This document shows, one piece after another, positions 3,919 through 26,459 of a stretch of DNA of 29,100 nt. The stretch lies in assembly GCA_041668145.1 (NCBI GenBank), contig JBAYDQ010000001.1, positions 1-29,100 of the forward strand, written 5' to 3'. Source of the stretch: Bacilli bacterium (GTDB lineage: Bacteria > Bacillota_I > Bacilli_A > RFN20 > CAG-826). A program made the position numbers and the translations under genes. The notes under the pieces were generated by a model, which worked only from the letters and a program-made list of their open reading frames with translations, was not told the origin of the DNA and did no database searches. Positions within the stretch are counted from its first letter, which is position 1. Each line of letters opens with the position of its first letter.

Positions 3919-4762
3919 AATTTTTATCTCCTTTTTTTATTATATAAAGAAAACGCGTCTTGTTGTGCATATCTTTTGAAAACTTAATAATTACATCACA
4001 TAGATATTTATCAATTAACCTTGTGAGTTTTTCTTCCATATCTTCACCAATTTCAAAGATCATCATTCCTTGCGGACTTAATATCTTATCGCAGTTTTTA
4101 AAAATTTTCTCATAAAAAAATGTATCTGGATAAGCTAGTAAGGCAAGGTGAGGTTCATATTTCCAAACTTGTTCGTCAATTTCTTCTTTTCTTTCAATAT
4201 AAGGAGGATTGCAAACAATGACATCAATCTTGATATTTTTTTTAATGAGAGGTTCCAACATATCGCCTTGTAAAAAAGAAATTTGATTTAACCGATCATT
4301 TCTTTTTGCAACTGCCAAGCATTCTTTATCAATGTCAGTTCCATAGATATCAGCGTGCGGAAAGTATTTCTTTAAAGTAATAGCAATACATCCTGATCCA
4401 GTACAAATATCGGCGATAGAAATAATTGATTTATCGAATGCTTTTTCAATAAGCGCTTTAGTATTTATGACTAATTCTTCTGTCTCCTGACGAGGAATTA
4501 AAACATGAGGATTAACTTCAAAATAACAATCGATAAAATTGCAATAACCCAAGACATATTGAAATGGCTCACCATGACAAACCCGCTCAATGTTTTCGAG
4601 TAATTTATTGTAATCTAGGCACTGAAAATCAAATGATTTGTACAAAGTAACATCATCATTAAATTTATTCACATCGCATAGTAAACTCTTAATAACGAAT
4701 CTAGTGAGGTATTTATTTCCAGATTTTAATAAATTAAAATATATTTCACGATTTGTGGGCAT
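3911..4762 (-). CDS. prmC: Release factor glutamine methyltransferase
   Basis: GEPFQYVLG, VLIPRQETEEL, DICTGSGCIA, NPPY; follows prfA. Confidence 0.96.
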   Translation of the reverse strand: MPTNREIYFNLLKSGNKYLTRFVIKSLLCDVNKFNDDVTLYKSFDFQCLDYNKLLENIERVCHGEPFQYVLGYCNFIDCYFEVNPHVLIPRQETEELVINTKALIEKAFDKSIISIADICTGSGCIAITLKKYFPHADIYGTDIDKECLAVAKRNDRLNQISFLQGDMLEPLIKKNIKIDVIVCNPPYIERKEEIDEQVWKYEPHLALLAYPDTFFYEKIFKNCDKILSPQGMMIFEIGEDMEEKLTRLIDKYLCDVIIKFSKDMHNKTRFLYIIKKGDKNYA

Positions 4763-4763
4763 G

Positions 4764-5837
4764 TTATTCGCCTGCTAATTTGCTTGATTGGTCAAAGTGA
4801 ATAAGGGCATCGATGATCTCATCAAGGTCACCCTCCATCACGCGATCTAATTTTTGAATAGTAAAACCAATTCGATGATCGGTAACGCGATTTTGAGGAT
4901 AATTATATGTTCTAATTTTTTCTGATCGCTCACCAGTTCCAACTTTCAGTTTTCGCTCACTGCCAATTTTCTCTTGTTGTTCAGCAAGGGCAGCCATATA
5001 CATTTTTGTTCTTAGCATTTGCATAGCAATTTCACGATTTTGAATCTGTGATTTCTCCGTTTGACACGCGACAACTATTCCAGTAGGAATGTGTGTAATG
5101 CGAACTGCAGACTCTGTTTTGTTAACATTTTGTCCACCCGCTCCTTGGCTATGATAGGTATCAACTTGTAAATCATTAGGATTAATTTGCACATCGATTT
5201 CTTCAGCTTCTGGCATGACCAAAACAGTTGCGGTTGAAGTATGAATTCTTCCACCAGCTTCTGTCTTAGGAACTCTTTGAACGCGATGCGCTCCACTTTC
5301 AAATTTTAATTTCGAATAGACATTGTCTCCGCTGATTTTGAAAGATACTTGAGCAAAACCACCAGCTTCAGATGGATTTTCATCGAGCATTTTAATTTTC
5401 CATCCTTGCGTTTCAGCATAGCGTGTATACATACGGAAAAGGTCTCCGGCAAAAATATTCGCTTCATCTCCACCGACAGCGCCACGTATTTCAACGATGA
5501 TATTTTTGTCATCATTAGGATCTTTAGGAAGTAAAAGTTCTCGCAGTTTTTCTTCGATAATAACCTGTTCAGATTCAAGGCGTTTTATCTCTTCTTTTCC
5601 CATTTCAGAGATATCGATATCATTATCATGGCTCATTTCATGAGCGCCAATTAAATCTTCTTCATTTTTCTTAAATTTTTGAAAGCATTCCACTTGTTCA
5701 TCCAGAGAAGCTCTTTCTTTAGAAATAAGCCGAAAATGAGCGATATCATTTATGATGTTTTCACTCATGAGTTCTTCGTCAATTTCTTTCAATCGTTTTT
5801 CAGCAATTTCTAAACGCTGATACATGCTTTTTTCCAT
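4764..5837 (-). CDS. prfA: Peptide chain release factor 1
   Basis: GAGGQNVNKTESAVR (GGQ), RF1-type PxT tripeptide (RVPKTE), KIRTYNYPQNRVTDHRI. Confidence 0.99.
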   Translation of the reverse strand: MEKSMYQRLEIAEKRLKEIDEELMSENIINDIAHFRLISKERASLDEQVECFQKFKKNEEDLIGAHEMSHDNDIDISEMGKEEIKRLESEQVIIEEKLRELLLPKDPNDDKNIIVEIRGAVGGDEANIFAGDLFRMYTRYAETQGWKIKMLDENPSEAGGFAQVSFKISGDNVYSKLKFESGAHRVQRVPKTEAGGRIHTSTATVLVMPEAEEIDVQINPNDLQVDTYHSQGAGGQNVNKTESAVRITHIPTGIVVACQTEKSQIQNREIAMQMLRTKMYMAALAEQQEKIGSERKLKVGTGERSEKIRTYNYPQNRVTDHRIGFTIQKLDRVMEGDLDEIIDALIHFDQSSKLAGE

Positions 5838-5862
5838 AAAAACCTCTCTTTAGGCGATATGT

Positions 5863-5873
5863 ATTTTACCATA
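5863..5873 (-). promoter_or_regulatory. Candidate extended -10 promoter of prfA
   Basis: Minus strand TATG-G-TAAAAT (TRTGn plus -10), about 25 nt upstream of the ATG; SD AGAGG lies between. Confidence 0.55.
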
Positions 5874-5950
5874 GGAGGGCCTAAAGAAAAAGGTTCAATT
5901 ACTTTTATTTAATATGAATATTAAGGCTTTTATGTAAGCGCGCATTTGTG

Positions 5951-5956
5951 TATAAT
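5951..5956 (+). promoter_or_regulatory. Candidate -10 box of the dnaX operon
   Basis: Perfect TATAAT 18 nt before the ATG, with GGTGA between; only a weak -35 (TTTTAT). Confidence 0.5.
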
Positions 5957-5974
5957 CTTAAATGGTGAACAAAT

Positions 5975-7684
5975 ATGGCTTACAAGGCACTTTATCGAAA
6001 ATATCGCCCCTTAACCTTTGACGAAGTTGCTGGGCAACAACATATCGTCAAAACAATTAAAAATGCTTTAGCAACGGGTAAAATTGCTCATGCTTATCTT
6101 TTTGCTGGACCGCGTGGAACGGGAAAGACTACGATGGCAAAACTTCTCGCTAAAGCTTTAAACTGCGACGAGGGAATTGGTCATCAATGCAATGATTGCA
6201 AAAACTGCATTGCCATCAATGAAGGAACTCATCCTGATGTTCTTGAAATTGACGCCGCCAGCAATAACGGAGTTGATGAGATTAGAGATTTAATTGACAA
6301 AGTCAAATACAGCACTATTCTCGGTCGATATAAAGTTTATATTATCGATGAAGTTCATATGATGACCGCTGGCGCTTTCAATGCCCTATTGAAAACACTT
6401 GAAGAACCACCAGAGCATGTCATCTTTATATTAGCCACCACGGAACCGCATAAAATTTTGCCAACCATTCTTTCTCGCTGTCAAAGATATGATTTTTCGA
6501 AAGTTAGCGATGATGATATCAATAATCGAATTAAAGATATTTTGGAACAAGAAGAAATTGCATATAACGAAAAAGCCGTCAAATTGATTGTCTCATTAGC
6601 CGATGGCGGAATGCGCGATGCGTTGTCAATCTTAGATCAAGTTTTAGCGTATTCTGGTAACCGCTTAAATGAGGATGATGTTCTTGATATTTTCGCTCTT
6701 GAATCAACACAAGAAAAAATCGAACTGCTAACTTCTATCGCTCAAAATGATATTACTGACGTTCTAGATCGATTAAAGGAATATGTCGCTCGCGGAACAG
6801 ATATTAAACGCTTAACTGATGACTTGCTTCTAATTTTGAAAGATCTCTTAATTTTTGAAACCACTAATCGATTTGATTATTTAGAAATTCTAAAAAAAGA
6901 GGAAGTCCAAATTCTTTCTCATCAATTTAATCAAAGACAAACAATGGAAATGATTGAAATCTTGATGAACACTCTTAAAGATTATAAAAATGTCACTTCC
7001 ATCGTTCCCTTATTTGAGGTTATGCTTCTAAAATTAGCTAGTCTAAAATTTGAAAAAAAGGAAAATGTCTCAGTTACTGTCAAAGAAGATATGGTACCTA
7101 AAAATAGTGAAACAAACGCTGAAAATACTGCAAAAAGCCAATTTAATGACAATAAAGCTAAAAGTAATGCACCTCAACAAATGTCAATTCTTTCCGAAGA
7201 TGAGCCACAAATTGATGAACCACAAAAGCCTATTGTTTTTGATAAGGGAGTGTTGCTATTAGAAAATACAAAAGTAGAAGATAAATTTTTTGTTAATGAT
7301 GATTTAATGATTAAAATCATGGTTACCAGCAAAAAAGATATTAAGAATGATTTAATTAAAAATTGGAAAAATATCAATCGGCTAACCACTCATCCATCTC
7401 TTGGCAAAGTTGCTATGTTACTCGTTGATGGTCATCCGCTGGTCGCTGGAAACAAAGTTCTCATTGTTGAATATCCACTCGATAAGGCTGTCACAAAAGT
7501 TAATACTCAAGAAAATCAGCAAGAAATTCAAGATGTTATTTCTAATATTTTTGGGCGAAAAATGTTTGTTTATGCCGTCTCAAGAAAAGATTCGATTAGA
7601 TTGCAAAAGATGTATATGGATATGATTCAAGTTAACAAATTACCAAAAATTAACGAATCAACTTTAAAGTTTATAGGAGAATAG
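5975..7684 (+). CDS. dnaX: DNA polymerase III subunit tau/gamma
   Basis: ALYRKYRPLTF, GPRGTGKTT, Cys4 cluster, IIDEVHM, ILSRCQRYDF, DGGMRDALS. Confidence 0.99.
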   Translation: MAYKALYRKYRPLTFDEVAGQQHIVKTIKNALATGKIAHAYLFAGPRGTGKTTMAKLLAKALNCDEGIGHQCNDCKNCIAINEGTHPDVLEIDAASNNGVDEIRDLIDKVKYSTILGRYKVYIIDEVHMMTAGAFNALLKTLEEPPEHVIFILATTEPHKILPTILSRCQRYDFSKVSDDDINNRIKDILEQEEIAYNEKAVKLIVSLADGGMRDALSILDQVLAYSGNRLNEDDVLDIFALESTQEKIELLTSIAQNDITDVLDRLKEYVARGTDIKRLTDDLLLILKDLLIFETTNRFDYLEILKKEEVQILSHQFNQRQTMEMIEILMNTLKDYKNVTSIVPLFEVMLLKLASLKFEKKENVSVTVKEDMVPKNSETNAENTAKSQFNDNKAKSNAPQQMSILSEDEPQIDEPQKPIVFDKGVLLLENTKVEDKFFVNDDLMIKIMVTSKKDIKNDLIKNWKNINRLTTHPSLGKVAMLLVDGHPLVAGNKVLIVEYPLDKAVTKVNTQENQQEIQDVISNIFGRKMFVYAVSRKDSIRLQKMYMDMIQVNKLPKINESTLKFIGE

Positions 7685-11091: not shown

Positions 11092-11935
11092 AAATTTTGA
11101 TAATAACGGATTTGTCTTGTATTTGGTCGCTACTCCTATCGGCAATCTTTCTGAGATGTCTAAAAGAGCAATCAATACATTGAATGATGTTGACTTAATT
11201 GCTGCAGAGGACACGAGAAATACTCATTCGCTATTAGAGAAATTTGGAATTAAAAAAGAACTATTTTCTCTTCGAGAACATAATGAATCGCAAGCTTCAG
11301 AGCATCTCATTTCATTGATAAAAGAAGGCAAAAAAGTTGCTTATGTTTCTGATGCTGGGTATCCCGGAATCAGCGATCCAGGACAAATACTAGTTAAGAA
11401 AGCTTTAGAGAGTGAAATTAAAGTCTCCACCATCAGTGGCAGTTCAGCCTTTTTAAATGCTTTAGTGGCTTCTGGTTTACCAGCAGATCATTTTTATTTT
11501 TATGGCTTTTTATCTCCAAAGGAAAAAGAAGCACAGAAAGAATTAGAAGATATTAAAAATCGCTCTGAAACCACTATTCTCTATGAAAGTCCACATCGAA
11601 TTTTTAAAACTCTATCGCTATTAAGGGAAGTTTTAAATAATAGAGAGCTTGTTCTCGCTAGAGAATTAACCAAACTTAACGAAGAATATATTTACGGAAC
11701 GGCAGAAGAAATTCTTGCTCTTGAAGGTGAAGGATTAAAGGGAGAGATGGTTATTATCATTTCTGGATGTGTAGAGAAACCTGTGGTGGAAGACAACAAA
11801 ATTATAGATAGAGTAGGTTATCTTATTAAAAAGGGTTTATCAAATAAAAACGCTATTGAAATAACTAGCGAAGAAATGAATATTAATAAAAATTATATAT
11901 ATAAGCTTGTAAACAAAGCAGATTTTTCTAAATAA
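11078..11935 (+). CDS. rsmI: 16S rRNA C1402 2'-O-methyltransferase
   Basis: LYLVATPIGNL, AAEDTR, VSDAGYPGISDPG, YESPHR, ARELTKLNEE. Confidence 0.97.
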   Translation: MKRNKNFDNNGFVLYLVATPIGNLSEMSKRAINTLNDVDLIAAEDTRNTHSLLEKFGIKKELFSLREHNESQASEHLISLIKEGKKVAYVSDAGYPGISDPGQILVKKALESEIKVSTISGSSAFLNALVASGLPADHFYFYGFLSPKEKEAQKELEDIKNRSETTILYESPHRIFKTLSLLREVLNNRELVLARELTKLNEEYIYGTAEEILALEGEGLKGEMVIIISGCVEKPVVEDNKIIDRVGYLIKKGLSNKNAIEITSEEMNINKNYIYKLVNKADFSK

Positions 11936-18326: not shown

Positions 18327-18470
18327 TTAAGCGCCGTCAATGTCGGTATCACAAATAGGCGGTTTTTTATCATTGCGGTATTGATTTTCACGTTCATGAA
18401 ACATATCAATATCTTCACCGCTTAAATAACGATGTTTTCTTTTTTTGCTTTTATTTGTCTTAATATCCAT
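18327..18470 (-). CDS. Unlisted 47-aa ORF, possibly a small protein or a truncated remnant
   Basis: MDIKTNKSKKRKHRYLSGEDIDMFHERENQYRNDKKPPICDTDIDGA; its ATG directly follows the kinase TAA (TAAATG) and it fills most of an otherwise empty 195-bp gap. Confidence 0.5.
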   Translation of the reverse strand: MDIKTNKSKKRKHRYLSGEDIDMFHERENQYRNDKKPPICDTDIDGA

Positions 18471-20071: not shown

Positions 20072-20100
20072 ATTCTAATAAAAACATATTTTGATGTCCA
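20072..20100 (-). promoter_or_regulatory. Candidate sigma-A promoter of the FGGY kinase
   Basis: Minus strand TGGACA (20100-20095), 17 nt, TAGAAT (20077-20072); SD GAGGT downstream. Confidence 0.65.
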
Positions 20101-20143
20101 AAAGATTAAATTTATGTAAATTTATGGCGTTTTTACTTACCTA

Positions 20144-20154
20144 TGTGCTAGTAT
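20144..20154 (+). promoter_or_regulatory. Candidate extended -10 of ppdK
   Basis: TGTG-C-TAGTAT; the predicted start near 20161 coincides with the base of a leader hairpin; no good -35. Confidence 0.45.
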
Positions 20155-20210
20155 TGTATCGCTGGTGTGGTGCTATGCACTACACGTTCAGACCTATGAG
20201 GAGGAAAATT

Positions 20211-22850
20211 ATGGCTGAAAAGAAATATGTTTACGCCTTCGAAGATGCCCACGGATTGGGAAGAGAACTTCTTGGAGGCAAAGGCGCCGGCCTTGCTGAA
20301 ATGACACACATTGGTGTTCGCATTCCTGAAGGTTTTACTATCACTACTGAAGTTTGCGCTTTGTTCTATGAAAGTGGCAAAAAACTTCCAGAGTATATCG
20401 TCGAACAAATTTTCGAAGCAGTAAAAGTTATCGAAAAGAAAACCGGAAAAGTTTTTGGTGGATCACACAATCCCCTACTTGTTTCCGTACGTTCTGGCGC
20501 TCGCGCTAGTATGCCTGGTATGATGGACACCATCTTAAACCTTGGTTTAAATGATGAAACTGTCGCCGCTTTAGCAAAAGAGACTGGCAATGAAAGATTC
20601 GCAATGGACTCTTTCCGCCGTTTCATCTTGATGTTCACCAACATCGCTAAAGGACATTCACGTGAAGAAATGGACAAAATGCTAGCTGATCTTAAAGAAA
20701 AGAATGGTTACAAATTGGACACTGAAGTCACCACTGAACAATTAAAAGACTTAGTTACCCGTTATAAGGCTTATTACAAAAAAACATTTGGAGAAGATTT
20801 CCCATCTGATCCAAAAGAGCAATTATTAGTCGCCGTTTCCGCGGTATTTAAGAGCTGGGACAACCCACGTGCGAACGTTTATCGTATGATGAACAACATT
20901 CCCTATTCTTGGGGTACTGCTGTTAACGTTCAATCGATGGCTTTTGGTAATAAAGGCGAAACTTCTGGTACAGGCGTTGCGTTCTCACGTGATCCTGCCA
21001 CAGGCGAAAATAAAATTTCCGCTGAATATTTACCAAACGCTCAAGGCGAAGATGTCGTCGCTGGTATTCGCACTCCACTTCATATTGATGAATTAAAAGC
21101 GAGAATGCCAAAAGTCTACGATGAATTTGTTAAAACAATTAAAATCATGGAAAATCATTACCGTGATATGCAAGATATGGAATTCACTGTCGAAGATGGT
21201 GTCCTCTATTTCTTACAAACTCGTAACGGTAAGAGAACTCCAGCCGCTGCTTTAAAAATCGCTTGTGATTTAGTCGACGAAGGACTAATCAATGAAAAAG
21301 AGGCTGTTTGCCGAATCGATGCAATGTCTTTTGACAAGCTCTTGCTTCCTGGATTTGATAAGCAAGTTTTAAAAGAAACTACTCCTATCGCTAAAGGTTT
21401 AGCCGCTGGCCCAGGAGCGGGTACAGGCGCTATCGCCTTTACCGCTGAAGAAGCTGAGGCCAGAAAGAAAGCTGGCGAAAAAGTTATTTTAGTCCGTGCC
21501 GAGACTTCTCCTGAAGATATCGTTGGCATGGTCGCCGCTCAAGGCATTCTCACCATGCGTGGCGGTATGACATCACACGCTGCTGTCGTGGCTCGTGGTA
21601 TGGGCAAGTGCTGTGTGTGTGGATGTTCAGCCGCAATTGTTGATGAGCACGCTCGCACCGTCACTATCGGCGACAAGGTCTACACTGATAAAGATGTGAT
21701 TTCCGTTGATGGAAATACTGGAAATGTCTATTTCGGATCCATTAAAACCGTTGAACCAGATTTAACTGCTGGTTATTTCGGAAGATTAATGAGTTGGGTT
21801 GATGAATATCGTGATTTAAAGGTTCGTACAAACGCCGATACTCCACTAGATGCCAAACAAGCCAAAATTTTTGGCGCTCAAGGTATTGGTCTCTGCCGTA
21901 CTGAACATATGTTCTTCGCCAAAGACAGAATCTTCTCAATGCGAAAAATGATTCTTGCTGATACTGTTGAAGAGCGCGAAGCGGCTTTAGCCGAAATCGA
22001 ACCAATGCAACAAAGCGATTTTGAATCTCTTTACGAAGTTATGGGCGATTTCAATGTTAACGTCCGTCTCTTAGATCCACCACTCCATGAATTCTTACCA
22101 CAAGAAGAAGGTTTAATTGAAGAACTTGCTCTTGCAACCAAGAAAACTGTTCAACAAGTTAAGGATCGTATCGCTGAACTCCACGAAGCTAACCCAATGA
22201 TGGGTCATCGTGGTTGCCGTTTAGCGGTTACCTATCCTGAAATTTGTAGAATGCAAACTTCCGCCATTATTAAGGCCGCCATTAATGTCAGCAAAAAGAC
22301 TGGCAAATTAGTAGAGCCAGAAATCATGGTCCCGCTCATTCTTGAAGAAAAAGAACTCAAATTTGTTAAGAACATTATTTGCCAAGTCGCGGATGAATTA
22401 ATTGCTACTTCGGGATTAAATATGAAATACCACGTTGGTACAATGATTGAAATTCCACGAGCGGCCTTATTATCCGATGAAATTGCTAAAGAAGCTGAAT
22501 TCTTCTCCTTTGGTACTAATGACTTAACTCAAATGACATTCGGTTTCTCTCGTGATGATGCTGGTAAATTCTTACCTGCTTATTACGAAAATAAAATTCT
22601 CGAAGAAGATCCATTTAAAACTCTCGATCAAAATGGTGTCGGTAAATTAATTACTCTTTCTGTTAAACTCGGAAGAGCGACGAGACCAAATCTCCATATT
22701 GGTGTCTGTGGTGAAACTGGTGGAGATCCAAAATCCATCGAATTCTATCACAAAGTTGGCTTGGATTATGTCTCCTGTTCACCATTCCGTGTTCCAGTGG
22801 CAAGATTAGCAGCTGCTCAAGCGGCTATTCTCTTCCCAAGAAAAAAATAA
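20211..22850 (+). CDS. ppdK: Pyruvate, phosphate dikinase
   Basis: LLGGKGAGLAEM, VSVRSGARASMPGMMDT, phospho-His motif GGMTSHAAVVARG, GIGLCRTEHMF, SFGTNDLTQ, VCGETGG. Start moved to ATG 20211 (SD GAGGAGG). Confidence 0.99.
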   Translation: MAEKKYVYAFEDAHGLGRELLGGKGAGLAEMTHIGVRIPEGFTITTEVCALFYESGKKLPEYIVEQIFEAVKVIEKKTGKVFGGSHNPLLVSVRSGARASMPGMMDTILNLGLNDETVAALAKETGNERFAMDSFRRFILMFTNIAKGHSREEMDKMLADLKEKNGYKLDTEVTTEQLKDLVTRYKAYYKKTFGEDFPSDPKEQLLVAVSAVFKSWDNPRANVYRMMNNIPYSWGTAVNVQSMAFGNKGETSGTGVAFSRDPATGENKISAEYLPNAQGEDVVAGIRTPLHIDELKARMPKVYDEFVKTIKIMENHYRDMQDMEFTVEDGVLYFLQTRNGKRTPAAALKIACDLVDEGLINEKEAVCRIDAMSFDKLLLPGFDKQVLKETTPIAKGLAAGPGAGTGAIAFTAEEAEARKKAGEKVILVRAETSPEDIVGMVAAQGILTMRGGMTSHAAVVARGMGKCCVCGCSAAIVDEHARTVTIGDKVYTDKDVISVDGNTGNVYFGSIKTVEPDLTAGYFGRLMSWVDEYRDLKVRTNADTPLDAKQAKIFGAQGIGLCRTEHMFFAKDRIFSMRKMILADTVEEREAALAEIEPMQQSDFESLYEVMGDFNVNVRLLDPPLHEFLPQEEGLIEELALATKKTVQQVKDRIAELHEANPMMGHRGCRLAVTYPEICRMQTSAIIKAAINVSKKTGKLVEPEIMVPLILEEKELKFVKNIICQVADELIATSGLNMKYHVGTMIEIPRAALLSDEIAKEAEFFSFGTNDLTQMTFGFSRDDAGKFLPAYYENKILEEDPFKTLDQNGVGKLITLSVKLGRATRPNLHIGVCGETGGDPKSIEFYHKVGLDYVSCSPFRVPVARLAAAQAAILFPRKK

Positions 22851-22870: not shown

Positions 22871-22898
22871 AAAAAGCTCAATCCGTTGAGCTTTTTTT
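22871..22898. terminator. Bidirectional intrinsic terminator between ppdK and the ROK kinase
   Basis: AAAAAGCTCAA-TCCG-TTGAGCTTTTTTT. Confidence 0.9.
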
Positions 22899-22924: not shown

Positions 22925-23857
22925 CTATTGTTTAAAGAATAATGAAGCAGCGCCAATAACGCCAGCGTTGTAACCCAATTTCCCGACCAATATTTGAACT
23001 TCGGGAGAACGAGGAAAACCATAAGATCTTTCCGCACAATAATTTTTAAGACGTGAAGTAAGATAACCACCTTCTTTGGAAATTCCTCCACAGAGGATAA
23101 CCGCATCAGGACGGAAAATATTACATAAATTAAGAATGCCTTCTCCTAAATAATGGACATAATTTCTCACTACTTCTTGAGCGAAACGATCGCCGATTTT
23201 AGCCGCTGAAAACGCCACTCTTCCATCAACTTCTTCAAGAGAGGAAGCAAATTTCCACATTAACGAATCTTCATGTTCTTTCATCATCGCTTTTGTATCA
23301 GCGATTAACGCCGTCGCTGAAGCATATGTCTCAAGACAACCATGGCGTCCGCATCCGCAAGGCCGACCATCCATTTGAATAATCATATGACCAATTTCGG
23401 CACCCTTACCCTCATTGCCTTCAAATAATTTGCCATTAAGAACTAAGCCTCCGCCGACACCTGTCCCTAAAGTAAGGACTACCATATTCTGAAATTGCTT
23501 TCCAACTCCAAAAGTTGCTTCACCTGAGGCGGCAGCGTTAGCATCGTTAGTCACATGAACAGGAAGAGGAATCTCTTTTTCAATTAACTCTTTGATTTTA
23601 ATATTTGTCCATCCGATATTTGGCGCAAATTCGACAACACCCGTTTCAGAATCAACCGTTCCGGGGCAACCGATGCCAATACCAAGGACGCTTGGATAAT
23701 TTATCTTTTTAATTTCCGTGACAAGTTTGGCAATTGTAACTTCTGGTTCCTCGCCTTTTTCTACTGTCATCGTAAAAAAATCAAGCAAATCGCCTTTTGG
23801 GGTAACAACCGCCCCTTTAATATAGGTACCACCAATATCAATTCCAATTGCATTCAT
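22925..23857 (-). CDS. ROK-family sugar kinase (glucokinase-like, no HTH domain)
   Basis: IGIDIGGT, GIGCPG, NDANAAA, TLGTGVGGG, GAEIGH, Zn motif CGCGRHGCLETYAS. Confidence 0.93.
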   Translation of the reverse strand: MNAIGIDIGGTYIKGAVVTPKGDLLDFFTMTVEKGEEPEVTIAKLVTEIKKINYPSVLGIGIGCPGTVDSETGVVEFAPNIGWTNIKIKELIEKEIPLPVHVTNDANAAASGEATFGVGKQFQNMVVLTLGTGVGGGLVLNGKLFEGNEGKGAEIGHMIIQMDGRPCGCGRHGCLETYASATALIADTKAMMKEHEDSLMWKFASSLEEVDGRVAFSAAKIGDRFAQEVVRNYVHYLGEGILNLCNIFRPDAVILCGGISKEGGYLTSRLKNYCAERSYGFPRSPEVQILVGKLGYNAGVIGAASLFFKQ

Positions 23858-23889: not shown

Positions 23890-24147
23890 TTATTTTCTCG
23901 CTGAAATAATTGACTTATTGAAAACAAAATTATTGTCTCCGTCGATATATCCCACTTCTTTTCCGTTGATAATGATTGAACTATCATCATCGATAAAACC
24001 TATTTCTTTGTCACCGAATGAAATAACTCCATCATCAGTAATAGAGGCAAATTTATTGCCGTTGATAAATAATTCATTTCGGCCAATATAGCCAACGAGC
24101 TCTTGATCAATGTAGATATTTCTGCCAAAGCATTCAATAATAAGCAT
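23890..24147 (-). CDS. 85-aa acidic, Gly-rich protein with four ~16-aa beta-hairpin repeats (beta-flower-like)
   Basis: Repeats GRNIYIDQELVGYIG / RNELFINGNKFASITD / DGVISFGDKEIGFIDD / DSSIIINGKEVGYIDG; the start overlaps the glmU stop (TAATG). The ORF looks real; the fold call is inference. Confidence 0.75.
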   Translation of the reverse strand: MLIIECFGRNIYIDQELVGYIGRNELFINGNKFASITDDGVISFGDKEIGFIDDDSSIIINGKEVGYIDGDNNFVFNKSIISARK

Positions 24148-25556
24148 TATTTTTTCGATGCTTCCTTTTTGGCTTTTGCTTTATTCATAAAAGTTGTGTA
24201 ACCATGTTCAATTTCAACTTGGCGCGCTCTTGCAATAACCAGTGAGTCAGTTTTTACATCCTTTGTAATTGTTGATCCTGCCGCTGTAAAAGAAGCATCC
24301 TCAACTTTTATGGGAGCCACAAGAATAGTTCCGCTCCCAAGAAAAACGTTTTTCCCAATATCACAACGAGTTTTGTTGTATCCATCATAATTGGCAGTGA
24401 TTGTTCCACAGCCAATATTGGTTTTTTCTCCAACTTCTGAATCGCCAATATAAGTCAGGTGAGCAGATTTAACTCCATCCTTAAAAATGGCGTTTTTCAA
24501 TTCGACAAAATTTCCCACTCGGCAATAATTGCCGATAATGGTTCCAGCACGCATTTTTGTGAAAGGACCAATTTCATTGAAATTTCCAATCTCGGTATCA
24601 GAAATCCAAGATGATTGAATGAGATTATCGTCTCCGACTGTCACATGATTTAAATATGTATTAGGACCAATTGTGTTGGCTTCGCCAATTCGACATTTAC
24701 CAAAAATAGTCGTGTTAGGCATAATAATAGTATCGCGGCCAATTTGCACATCGGGAGAAATATAAGTTGAATCAGGATCTTCCATCGAAACTCCGGAAAG
24801 CATAAGTTTGTGATTGATTCTTTTGCGGATGACTTTTCCGGCATATGACAATTGAATTCGATCATTAATACCAAAAACTTCAACAGCATCTTCCACAACA
24901 TAAGCCCCAACTTTTTTGCCATTACGAATAAAAATTTCGACTAAATCCGTTAAATAATACTCTTTTTGAGCATTATTAGTTGTGAGTTGATCGATATATT
25001 CAAAAAGAGATTTATTGTCAAAAACATAAAGACCGGCATTTACTTCACGAATATCTTTTTCATATTCATTACAATCTTTCTCTTCTTTAATAGCTAAGAC
25101 ATGGTTGCTTTTTTCTTCTCGAATAATACGTCCATATCCTTTAGGGTTTTCTAAAACAGCAGTAACAATAGTTAATTTATTATTAATTTTCTCATGGACT
25201 TTAAAAATATTTTCAATAGATTCGGTCGTCACAAGAGGAGTGTCACCACATATAACCAGCGTTGAACCTTCTTTATCGCGTAATAAGTTTTTAGCTTGAA
25301 GAACGGCGTTTCCCGTTCCGCTTAAATCTTTTTGCCACACGACAGCAGCGCGATCCTCGACGAGAGATTTTGTTACATCTCCGCCAAAGCCCACGACAAC
25401 AACAATATTCTTCATTTCAAGAGGAATAATGGCGTCAAGAACATAGTTGACCAAAGCTTTTCCTAAAATGGGATAAGAAACTTTGGAATGTTGAGGATCA
25501 CGAGATTTCATTCTCGTTCCTTTCCCCGCGGCTAATACGACAGCATATTTATCCAT
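24147..25556 (-). CDS. glmU: Bifunctional UDP-GlcNAc pyrophosphorylase / glucosamine-1-P acetyltransferase
   Basis: LAAGKGTRMKS, ICGDTPL, GYGRIIR, EYYLTD, hexapeptide repeats, GNFVELK, AHLTYIGD, NIGCGTITANYDG; SD GGAGGA. Confidence 0.98.
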   Translation of the reverse strand: MDKYAVVLAAGKGTRMKSRDPQHSKVSYPILGKALVNYVLDAIIPLEMKNIVVVVGFGGDVTKSLVEDRAAVVWQKDLSGTGNAVLQAKNLLRDKEGSTLVICGDTPLVTTESIENIFKVHEKINNKLTIVTAVLENPKGYGRIIREEKSNHVLAIKEEKDCNEYEKDIREVNAGLYVFDNKSLFEYIDQLTTNNAQKEYYLTDLVEIFIRNGKKVGAYVVEDAVEVFGINDRIQLSYAGKVIRKRINHKLMLSGVSMEDPDSTYISPDVQIGRDTIIMPNTTIFGKCRIGEANTIGPNTYLNHVTVGDDNLIQSSWISDTEIGNFNEIGPFTKMRAGTIIGNYCRVGNFVELKNAIFKDGVKSAHLTYIGDSEVGEKTNIGCGTITANYDGYNKTRCDIGKNVFLGSGTILVAPIKVEDASFTAAGSTITKDVKTDSLVIARARQVEIEHGYTTFMNKAKAKKEASKK

Positions 25557-25565
25557 AAAATCCTC

Positions 25566-26420
25566 CTATTTAATAATACTAGTAACTTCAACAAGATACC
25601 TATCTTCTAATTTTCTTGCTGTTGATTTGATGAGAGCTAAATTAGTGCTAAGAGCAAAAACGGCACTCCCTGATCCAGTCATTGAAACAATAGAAAATCC
25701 TGCTTTAATTAATGTTTCTTTGATAATTTTAATTTCCGGAACCAGTTTTATAGCAGGCTCTTCTAAAGAATTGACGATTGATTGAGCAAGGAGTTGATCA
25801 TCGCCTTCTGCCAATGCTTTAACAACATCATCAACATTCCCAGTCGATAAAGTCATTGTATCAGATAATTCAAAAACATCCTTCGTTGAACATCCTTCGT
25901 TTGGCTTAACAATTAAAACCGAATAATTATTTTTAATAATAATATTTTCAAAATCGTCACCAGTTCCGTGACAACGAGCTGGTTTACAAGAAATAAAAAA
26001 TGGAACATCCGAGCCTAATTGTTTGGCAATTTCAATTAATTCATTTTCTTTTGCGTTTAATCTCAAAATTTTATTGACACCTTTTAAGACAAAAGCGGCA
26101 TTAGAAGAACCACCTCCCAATCCAGCTTGCATAGGAATTGACTTATGAATCGAGACACGAAATCTGTTTTTAAGATGATATTTTTGCTCAATTAGAGTTA
26201 ATGCTGAAGAAGCAAGATTGTAATGGACATTACCATTAGAAAAATCATCAATTGTCACAAAATTATTAGTAGCATTTTTTAATTCACTTATTAATAAAGA
26301 ATCGTGAAGTTCAATTGGAACCATGATCATATCAAGATTGTGAAAACCATCTCCACGTCTCTCGTTAACATTCAGACATATATTAATTTTGGCATAACTG
26401 CGTACAACTAAATCTTTCAT
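25566..26420 (-). CDS. ispE: 4-diphosphocytidyl-2-C-methyl-D-erythritol kinase
   Basis: YAKINICL, KSIPMQAGLGGGSSNAA, LGSDVPFF, MTGSGS. Confidence 0.96.
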   Translation of the reverse strand: MKDLVVRSYAKINICLNVNERRGDGFHNLDMIMVPIELHDSLLISELKNATNNFVTIDDFSNGNVHYNLASSALTLIEQKYHLKNRFRVSIHKSIPMQAGLGGGSSNAAFVLKGVNKILRLNAKENELIEIAKQLGSDVPFFISCKPARCHGTGDDFENIIIKNNYSVLIVKPNEGCSTKDVFELSDTMTLSTGNVDDVVKALAEGDDQLLAQSIVNSLEEPAIKLVPEIKIIKETLIKAGFSIVSMTGSGSAVFALSTNLALIKSTARKLEDRYLVEVTSIIK

Positions 26421-26430
26421 AAACTTAATA

Positions 26431-26459
26431 ATTATAATTATTGGTCCTTAAATCAGCAA
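26431..26459 (-). promoter_or_regulatory. Candidate sigma-A promoter of ispE-glmU-repeat protein-ROK
   Basis: Minus strand TTGCTG (26459-26454), 17 nt, TATAAT (26436-26431); only 10 nt to the ispE ATG. Confidence 0.65.

Follow-up and report, generated by a model that had tools for sequence, protein, structure and literature searches.

An unannotated, lineage-restricted hairpin-repeat protein, predicted to form a mini-barrel, in the ispE-glmU operon of small-genome Bacilli

The stretch of Bacilli DNA analysed here (29,100 nt in full, hereafter the window) was found to carry, immediately after glmU, a gene for a small acidic protein, X, which is an unannotated, lineage-restricted variant of the hairpin-repeat kind, predicted to form a mini-barrel and encoded in a housekeeping operon. 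The reading that we favour, tentatively, is that X is a lineage-specific soluble binding or adaptor mini-barrel with a facultative link to GlmU. The features on which the following account is built were located as follows:

22871-22896, minus strand: terminator-like hairpin between the convergent ROK and PPDK genes (11-bp stem plus T tail)
22925-23857, minus strand: gene for a ROK-family glucokinase (Pfam ROK, 5e-73; NCBIfam ROK_glcA_fam, 258 bits at a cut-off of 260)
23890-24147, minus strand: X (P0001), an 85-aa acidic four-hairpin repeat protein (ORF, translation, homologs, selection and AlphaFold model)
23932-24123, minus strand: four tandem 16-residue hairpin units of X, residues 9-72 (unit listing, conserved columns and DSSP strands)
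24145-24149, minus strand: TAATG junction, in which base 24147 belongs to both the TAA stop of glmU and the ATG start of X
24147-25556, minus strand: full-length bifunctional glmU, 469 aa (Pfam NTP_transferase and Hexapep; alignment of GlmU forms)
25566-26420, minus strand: ispE, a GHMP kinase gene (Pfam; synteny in 42 loci and in distant homologs)
26431-26459, minus strand: weak candidate promoter between ksgA and ispE, TTGCTG-17-TATAAT, read by eye

The four units of X span residues 9-24, 25-40, 41-56 and 57-72, after which come NFVF and a short tail. The protein (9.5 kDa, pI 4.34) contains 14 acidic and 8 basic residues, and neither a long hydrophobic stretch nor a signal-peptide-like segment was found at its N-terminus. 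A lipobox is unlikely, since Cys6 is replaced by Ser in many homologs. An earlier, sequence-only reading of this DNA had described an acidic protein of four units plus a closing strand, with no signal peptide, whose start overlaps the glmU stop and whose end lies 32 nt from the ROK gene. All of this agrees with the present results, the units being 16 aa long, the overlap amounting to one shared base and the ROK gene starting at 23857. The terminator that had been placed after ROK corresponds to the terminator-like hairpin at 22896-22871. The single promoter proposed before ispE was recovered in part: TTGCTG-17-TATAAT can be read by eye, with a -35 box matching at 3/6 positions and an end 10 nt before the ispE ATG, but a consensus promoter scan of the ksgA-ispE gap reported nothing.

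Two further observations were made elsewhere in the window. Directly at the stop of an FGGY kinase gene lies a small ORF of about 46-47 aa (window 18327-18470, and 11661-11801 of locus L001); gene calls in related contigs include it as well, and it may encode a conserved coupled micro-protein. For the PPDK gene (20091-22850), the longest ORF begins at a TTG that lies about 35 codons before the point where the homolog alignment starts (about residue 25-38), and the true start is probably an internal ATG near MAEKKYVY.

A word-indexed search for homologs of X returned 131 proteins of 81-97 aa with 64-94% identity. In an alignment of 34 sequences, 17 columns were shown to be invariant and a further 23 near-invariant. 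The best-conserved part was the nearly invariant, Asp/Asn-rich region of residues 52-76 (units 3-4 and the tail), and Asp/Asn-rich inter-hairpin loops were found around units 3-4 (D38, D53-D55, D69, N72 and N73). Pairwise comparison of X with 40 species-level loci gave pN values of 0.13-0.25 at saturated synonymous sites (pS 0.67-0.95; median pN/pS 0.21), which shows that X is under purifying selection. In the listed loci its conservation equalled or exceeded that of the enzymes encoded next to it; at locus L020, X showed 74% identity compared to 57% for GlmU, 60% for IspE and 58% for KsgA. X is thus a real, constrained gene, more than a chance ORF.

X was found in only one family of Bacilli, whose members have small genomes and apparently no cell wall. 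Within this family it was present in single copy in 174 of 400 genomes, and in 110 of the 243 high-quality ones. The carriers are uncultured Bacilli, known as MAGs of 0.8-1.8 Mb from rumen, gut, digesters and landfill, and DNA of the X locus was also contained in sequencing runs from landfill, bioreactor and groundwater metagenomes, no RNA run being among those listed. In an order-level sample, no match came from the seven other families save a weak one inside a long unrelated open frame, and an exhaustive HMMER pass over 1.8 billion representatives gave only 46 matches to X, of which the long ones were not relatives. Giant proteins (1,600-3,300 aa) with repeated matches to X, which carry Ig, cadherin, RCC1 and Calx-beta domains, were rejected as periodic or compositional similarities. 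X was cleanly absent or lost many times within the family; in X-less genomes ispE-glmU is followed by PPDK 59-109 nt later. The gene may have arisen within this family of small-genome, apparently peptidoglycan-less Bacilli and been inherited vertically.

An AlphaFold2 model of X, built on the 34-sequence alignment, reached a pLDDT of 82.8 and contained eight strands in four hairpins (DSSP strands 10-13/16-21, 25-28/31-36, 41-44/47-52 and 57-60/63-68), as well as a ninth, short strand and a C-terminal helix of low confidence. ESM Atlas models from three clusters of X-family members superposed on this model at TM 0.86-0.90, and thus two independent predictors agree on the fold. The prediction for X is a shallow barrel of eight strands, beta-flower-like in class, the hairpins being modelled and the closure of the barrel inferred. 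Outside the family, the nearest shapes in the ESM Atlas were the PF21785 beta-flower, DUF3659 and bactofilin-labelled clusters (TM 0.50-0.57), and an AFDB entry named "4-fold beta flower" gave TM 0.52. The language-model neighbours of X were Bflower clusters (at 0.85), which we take as a lead only. Among solved structures, a Foldseek search of the model against PDB gave no match at E<=0.001, the best VIA wide match was the RimM PRC barrel with a Z of only 5.0, and eight-stranded barrels were matched over some 70 residues at Z 3-3.6. When PDB sequences were searched with a profile, none fell below E 0.047; NCBIfam gave no match for X or for two distant homologs, and across Pfam, NCBIfam and PDB no family was found to claim X.

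X was shown to occupy a fixed position on the chromosome. The gene order rnmV-ksgA-ispE-glmU-X was established from 42 species-level loci, the slot being the same in all 42 as well as in distant homologs, and even homologs of only 29-46% identity keep the place after ispE-(glmU). In the 42 loci, the upstream stop and the X start are -14 to +12 nt apart. X directly follows glmU in 40 of these loci. It directly follows ispE at L035 and L043, and again at L067; ispE is the only upstream neighbour shared by all X loci examined for which the upstream flank was recovered. The adjacency of glmU and X, whose conservation the sequence-only reading had proposed to check, was therefore confirmed, with stop and start coupled, but the linkage of X to ROK was not: ROK lies downstream in only about 13 of the 42 loci, and the gene after X varies, including NUDIX plus a second nucleotidyltransferase, a convergent PPDK, Glf, a deaminase, a phosphatase and others. 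At L035, X is followed by a gene for a UDP-galactopyranose mutase (Glf; 5418-6512) in a genome in which no glmU was found, so that a sugar-nucleotide gene still adjoins X there. X may be regarded as the last cistron of a ...rnmV-ksgA-ispE-(glmU) block, and would be made by translational coupling to the upstream gene, whichever this is. A fixed slot within one vertically related clade cannot alone separate functional linkage from inherited synteny.

GlmU itself was found in several forms in this clade: full-length (about 465 aa, the form seen in the window), cut after about residue 335, reduced to the C-terminal half, or absent. Most X-bearing species contain the short form (about 29 of 42 loci, among them L004, at 4512-5522, L010, L020, L024 and L039), which ends at about residue 335, does not contain the acetyltransferase core including the AHL(S/T)Y(L/I)GD region, and matches the GlmU equivalog models over positions 1-325 only, below their cut-offs. 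The opposite form, consisting of the C-terminal beta-helix/acetyltransferase half (about 260-295 aa), was detected at L052 (4127-5014) and in genome G159 (C21, 35010-35687), with X still downstream of it. GlmU has thus been dismantled in several ways in an apparently peptidoglycan-less clade, while X was kept.

A search for PF00953 (MraY/WecA/TagO) gave no match in ten genomes (G003, G018, G076, G048, G071, G163, G275, G030, G097 and G000), which include two near-complete genomes of the window's genus; control genomes did match. Five of the ten were also searched for Mur_ligase_M, with a single match (about 410-420 aa) in four and none in one. IspF and IspH were present in 5/5 genomes, the MEP pathway being otherwise there. 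The clade apparently contains no peptidoglycan, though full-length glmU and the MEP pathway persist in many of its members. Since no MraY-family gene and at most one Mur-ligase-type gene were found in the genomes sampled, a role of X in wall-precursor synthesis is unlikely, which weakens the earlier proposal that X belongs to an envelope-precursor unit.

Given this setting, X might be an accessory or regulatory subunit dedicated to GlmU, or to the sugar-nucleotide branch, that docks on the enzyme's C-terminal tail or on its left-handed beta-helix stalk and stabilises or tunes it, truncated forms included; we consider this somewhat unlikely. In its favour, the X start overlaps the glmU stop in most loci, and some operons continue with ROK, NUDIX and a second nucleotidyltransferase, a theme of sugar activation. 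Furthermore, a whole-genome search revealed in-frame GlmU-X fusions in two species of one genus (G018, 548 aa; G259, 550 aa), with differing junction sequences; a search for longer X homologs gave no further fusions. Such fusions are Rosetta-stone-type evidence that both proteins can function together. The presence of X and the form of GlmU were cross-tabulated by hand for 131 mostly high-quality genomes, with a GlmU match cut-off of E<=1e-10. The 64 X-bearing genomes contained a long GlmU in 29 cases, a short one in 22, the C-terminal half only in 1 and none detected in 12, compared to 42 long, 10 short, 0 C-terminal only and at least 11 with none detected among X-less genomes. The short form was thereby about twice as frequent with X (22/64) as without (10/63), but this excess is clustered by genus and, the cases not being independent, is not readable statistically. 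About a fifth of X-bearing genomes were without a GlmU match, approximately the same share as in X-less genomes; the genomes of L035 and L043 likewise gave no GlmU, and in some loci of such genomes X stands directly behind ispE. Conversely, the 42 X-less genomes with a full-length glmU keep it in the same slot. Retention of X without glmU and of full-length glmU without X means that the co-occurrence expected of obligate partners fails. A complex prediction with three GlmU beta-helix domains (residues 228-469) and one X gave a score of 0.01, which is no evidence either way. The coupling of X to GlmU that had been read from the window thus stands as regards the stop/start overlap and the fusions, but not as a dependence on GlmU, and the tie between the two is real but facultative. 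The fusions and the near-universal overlap could equally reflect a closer dependence on GlmU than we allow here.

A role beside IspE in the isoprenoid branch, for instance as a barrel with a hydrophobic channel that would bind an isoprenoid or lipid intermediate, appears very unlikely to us. The idea is drawn by analogy with the Tubby-like and scramblase relatives of the beta-flowers, which have been likened to lipid-binding Tubby-like domains (PMC10584680). It agrees with the presence of ispE in every X locus with an upstream flank, with the direct coupling of X to ispE when glmU is absent, and with the otherwise present MEP pathway. However, ispE is also kept in X-less genomes, the eight strands of only 4-6 residues leave little room for a lipid, and X, an acidic and soluble protein, carries no motif for membrane association. 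It is highly improbable that X is a tolerated repeat-expansion ORF at the operon end with no specific function: its occurrence in only about 45% of the family's genomes, with many absences or losses, would fit such an ORF, but this reading is disfavoured because of the selection data, with saturated synonymous sites and strong purifying selection, and X also has residues invariant across 34 sequences and was kept where its neighbours were truncated, lost or replaced. X might also be the first beta-flower-like protein with a definable role, namely a cation- or protein-binding mini-barrel that modulates enzymes of sugar-nucleotide (GlmU) or isoprenoid precursor synthesis in wall-less Bacilli. 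We regard this as decidedly unlikely; if true, the retention of X while GlmU loses either of its catalytic halves would mark a rewired UDP-sugar pathway.

On the favoured reading of X as a soluble binding or adaptor mini-barrel, the protein would act as a small binding or adaptor module and not as an enzyme. It would be expressed with GlmU and could work tethered to the GlmU C-terminal tail, in a role that would not require GlmU. Its Asp/Asn-rich loops may form an acidic face that binds a positively charged partner, which could be a divalent metal or a basic patch on a protein; the near-invariance of the Asp/Asn-rich residues 52-76 is what suggests such a face. By eye, the segment D53-x-D55-G-S57-x-x-I60-x-x-K-E64 resembles a loop of the EF-hand or DxDxDG type (pattern: Asp/Asn/Ser at positions 1, 3 and 5, a hydrophobic residue at 8 and Glu at 12), except that position 6 is Ile and not Gly. 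D53, D55 and E64 do not vary within the core clade.

X was compared with several known systems. Mycobacterial GlmU carries a C-terminal extension, and in the two species with fusions X literally is such an extension. It differs from these tails in being a separate polypeptide elsewhere, and in persisting without GlmU, and it is not known to be related to them in sequence. Veg and SpoVG are small proteins of the ksgA-ispE-glmU neighbourhood in Firmicutes (Bacillus), and are thus similar to X in size and chromosomal neighbourhood, but X had no Pfam match to VEG or SpoVG. A search of five genomes from the clade gave no VEG in either X-bearing or X-less ones, and X as a positional analogue of Veg was rejected, as X gave no VEG match.

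A closer likeness was found in P0162, an unannotated protein with a sub-threshold bactofilin match, which has the same 16-aa period and a hairpin consensus (DGDIYIxGRKVGEIEE) as in X, and which aligned with X by hhalign at a probability of 99% over 73 columns. However, P0162 is a protein of 208 aa with near-identical repeats, a hydrophobic leader and a Pro/Thr-rich tail, is probably exported, and is unrelated to the ispE-glmU slot occupied by X. A true 4-fold beta-flower was also detected in the bacterial family of the X carriers, in genome G127 (L064, 1459-1857). This protein of 132 aa with a Gly/Pro-rich tail (PF21784, 80.5 bits) was the sole PF21784 match among the 400 Bacillota genomes sampled, and is encoded after a UDP-GlcNAc 2-epimerase-like gene in a locus unrelated to the X slot.

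To our knowledge, beta-flower-type hairpin barrels have been described solely from predicted structures, and we know of no function for them. The beta-flower families PF21784, PF21785 and PF21786 belong to Pfam clan CL0395 (Durairaj et al., 2023; PMC10584680), and their fold is defined by 8, 10 or 12 strands in hairpin petals, a [DNEQ]xxG tip motif and often an enclosed helix (PMC10584680). The earlier reading had called X beta-flower-like and proposed structure prediction with Foldseek and Pfam searches, which yielded the eight-strand hairpin model and Pfam matches below threshold. X scored 14.7 bits against PF21785 (Bflower_2; gathering threshold 38) and 14.5 bits against PF21784 (Bflower; gathering threshold 25), and 8 of 23 diverse X-family members matched PF21785 weakly (best E-value 1.5e-4). 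An hhalign comparison of the X alignment with the PF21784 protein of G127, the only true member compared, gave a probability of 0.2%, and a profile search with a diverse alignment had among its listed matches core-family members alone, none of them Pfam-labelled, and so gave no bridge to the beta-flower families.

Like the beta-flowers, X is a small, all-beta protein of tandem hairpin petals, and the short antiparallel strands of its model pair as such petals. An aromatic residue follows the conserved Gly in every unit, and the acidic/Gly loop (DDDG in the unit 3 consensus) resembles the [DNEQ]xxG motif in part. The tip motifs in the family consensus are TDDG in unit 2, DDDG in unit 3 and DGDN in unit 4, the window copy reading DDDS in unit 3. 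The beta-flower families were moreover closest to X in predicted shape and in language-model features, and gave its top weak HMM matches. On the other hand, the repeat of X is 16 aa compared to roughly 19-29 aa in beta-flowers, X has no lipoprotein or secretion signal and no confident enclosed C-terminal helix, and its near-invariant hydrophobic N-terminus, MLII(D/E)(C/S)FG, sets it apart. X scores below the Pfam gathering thresholds and has no profile similarity to the true PF21784 protein compared; it is therefore beta-flower-like but forms a separate, unannotated family and is not a member. Of the original description, the four hairpins and the nearest relatives hold, and membership of the beta-flower families does not. 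The housekeeping context, which had been called rare for this fold, was supported: X is encoded in a cytoplasmic housekeeping operon, which is unusual for the fold class. This gives a beta-flower-related family an unusually clean genetic setting, in which X is single-copy, cytoplasmic, constrained, operon-coupled and fused to GlmU once, and thereby a concrete experimental starting point, whether X binds GlmU, a metal or something else.
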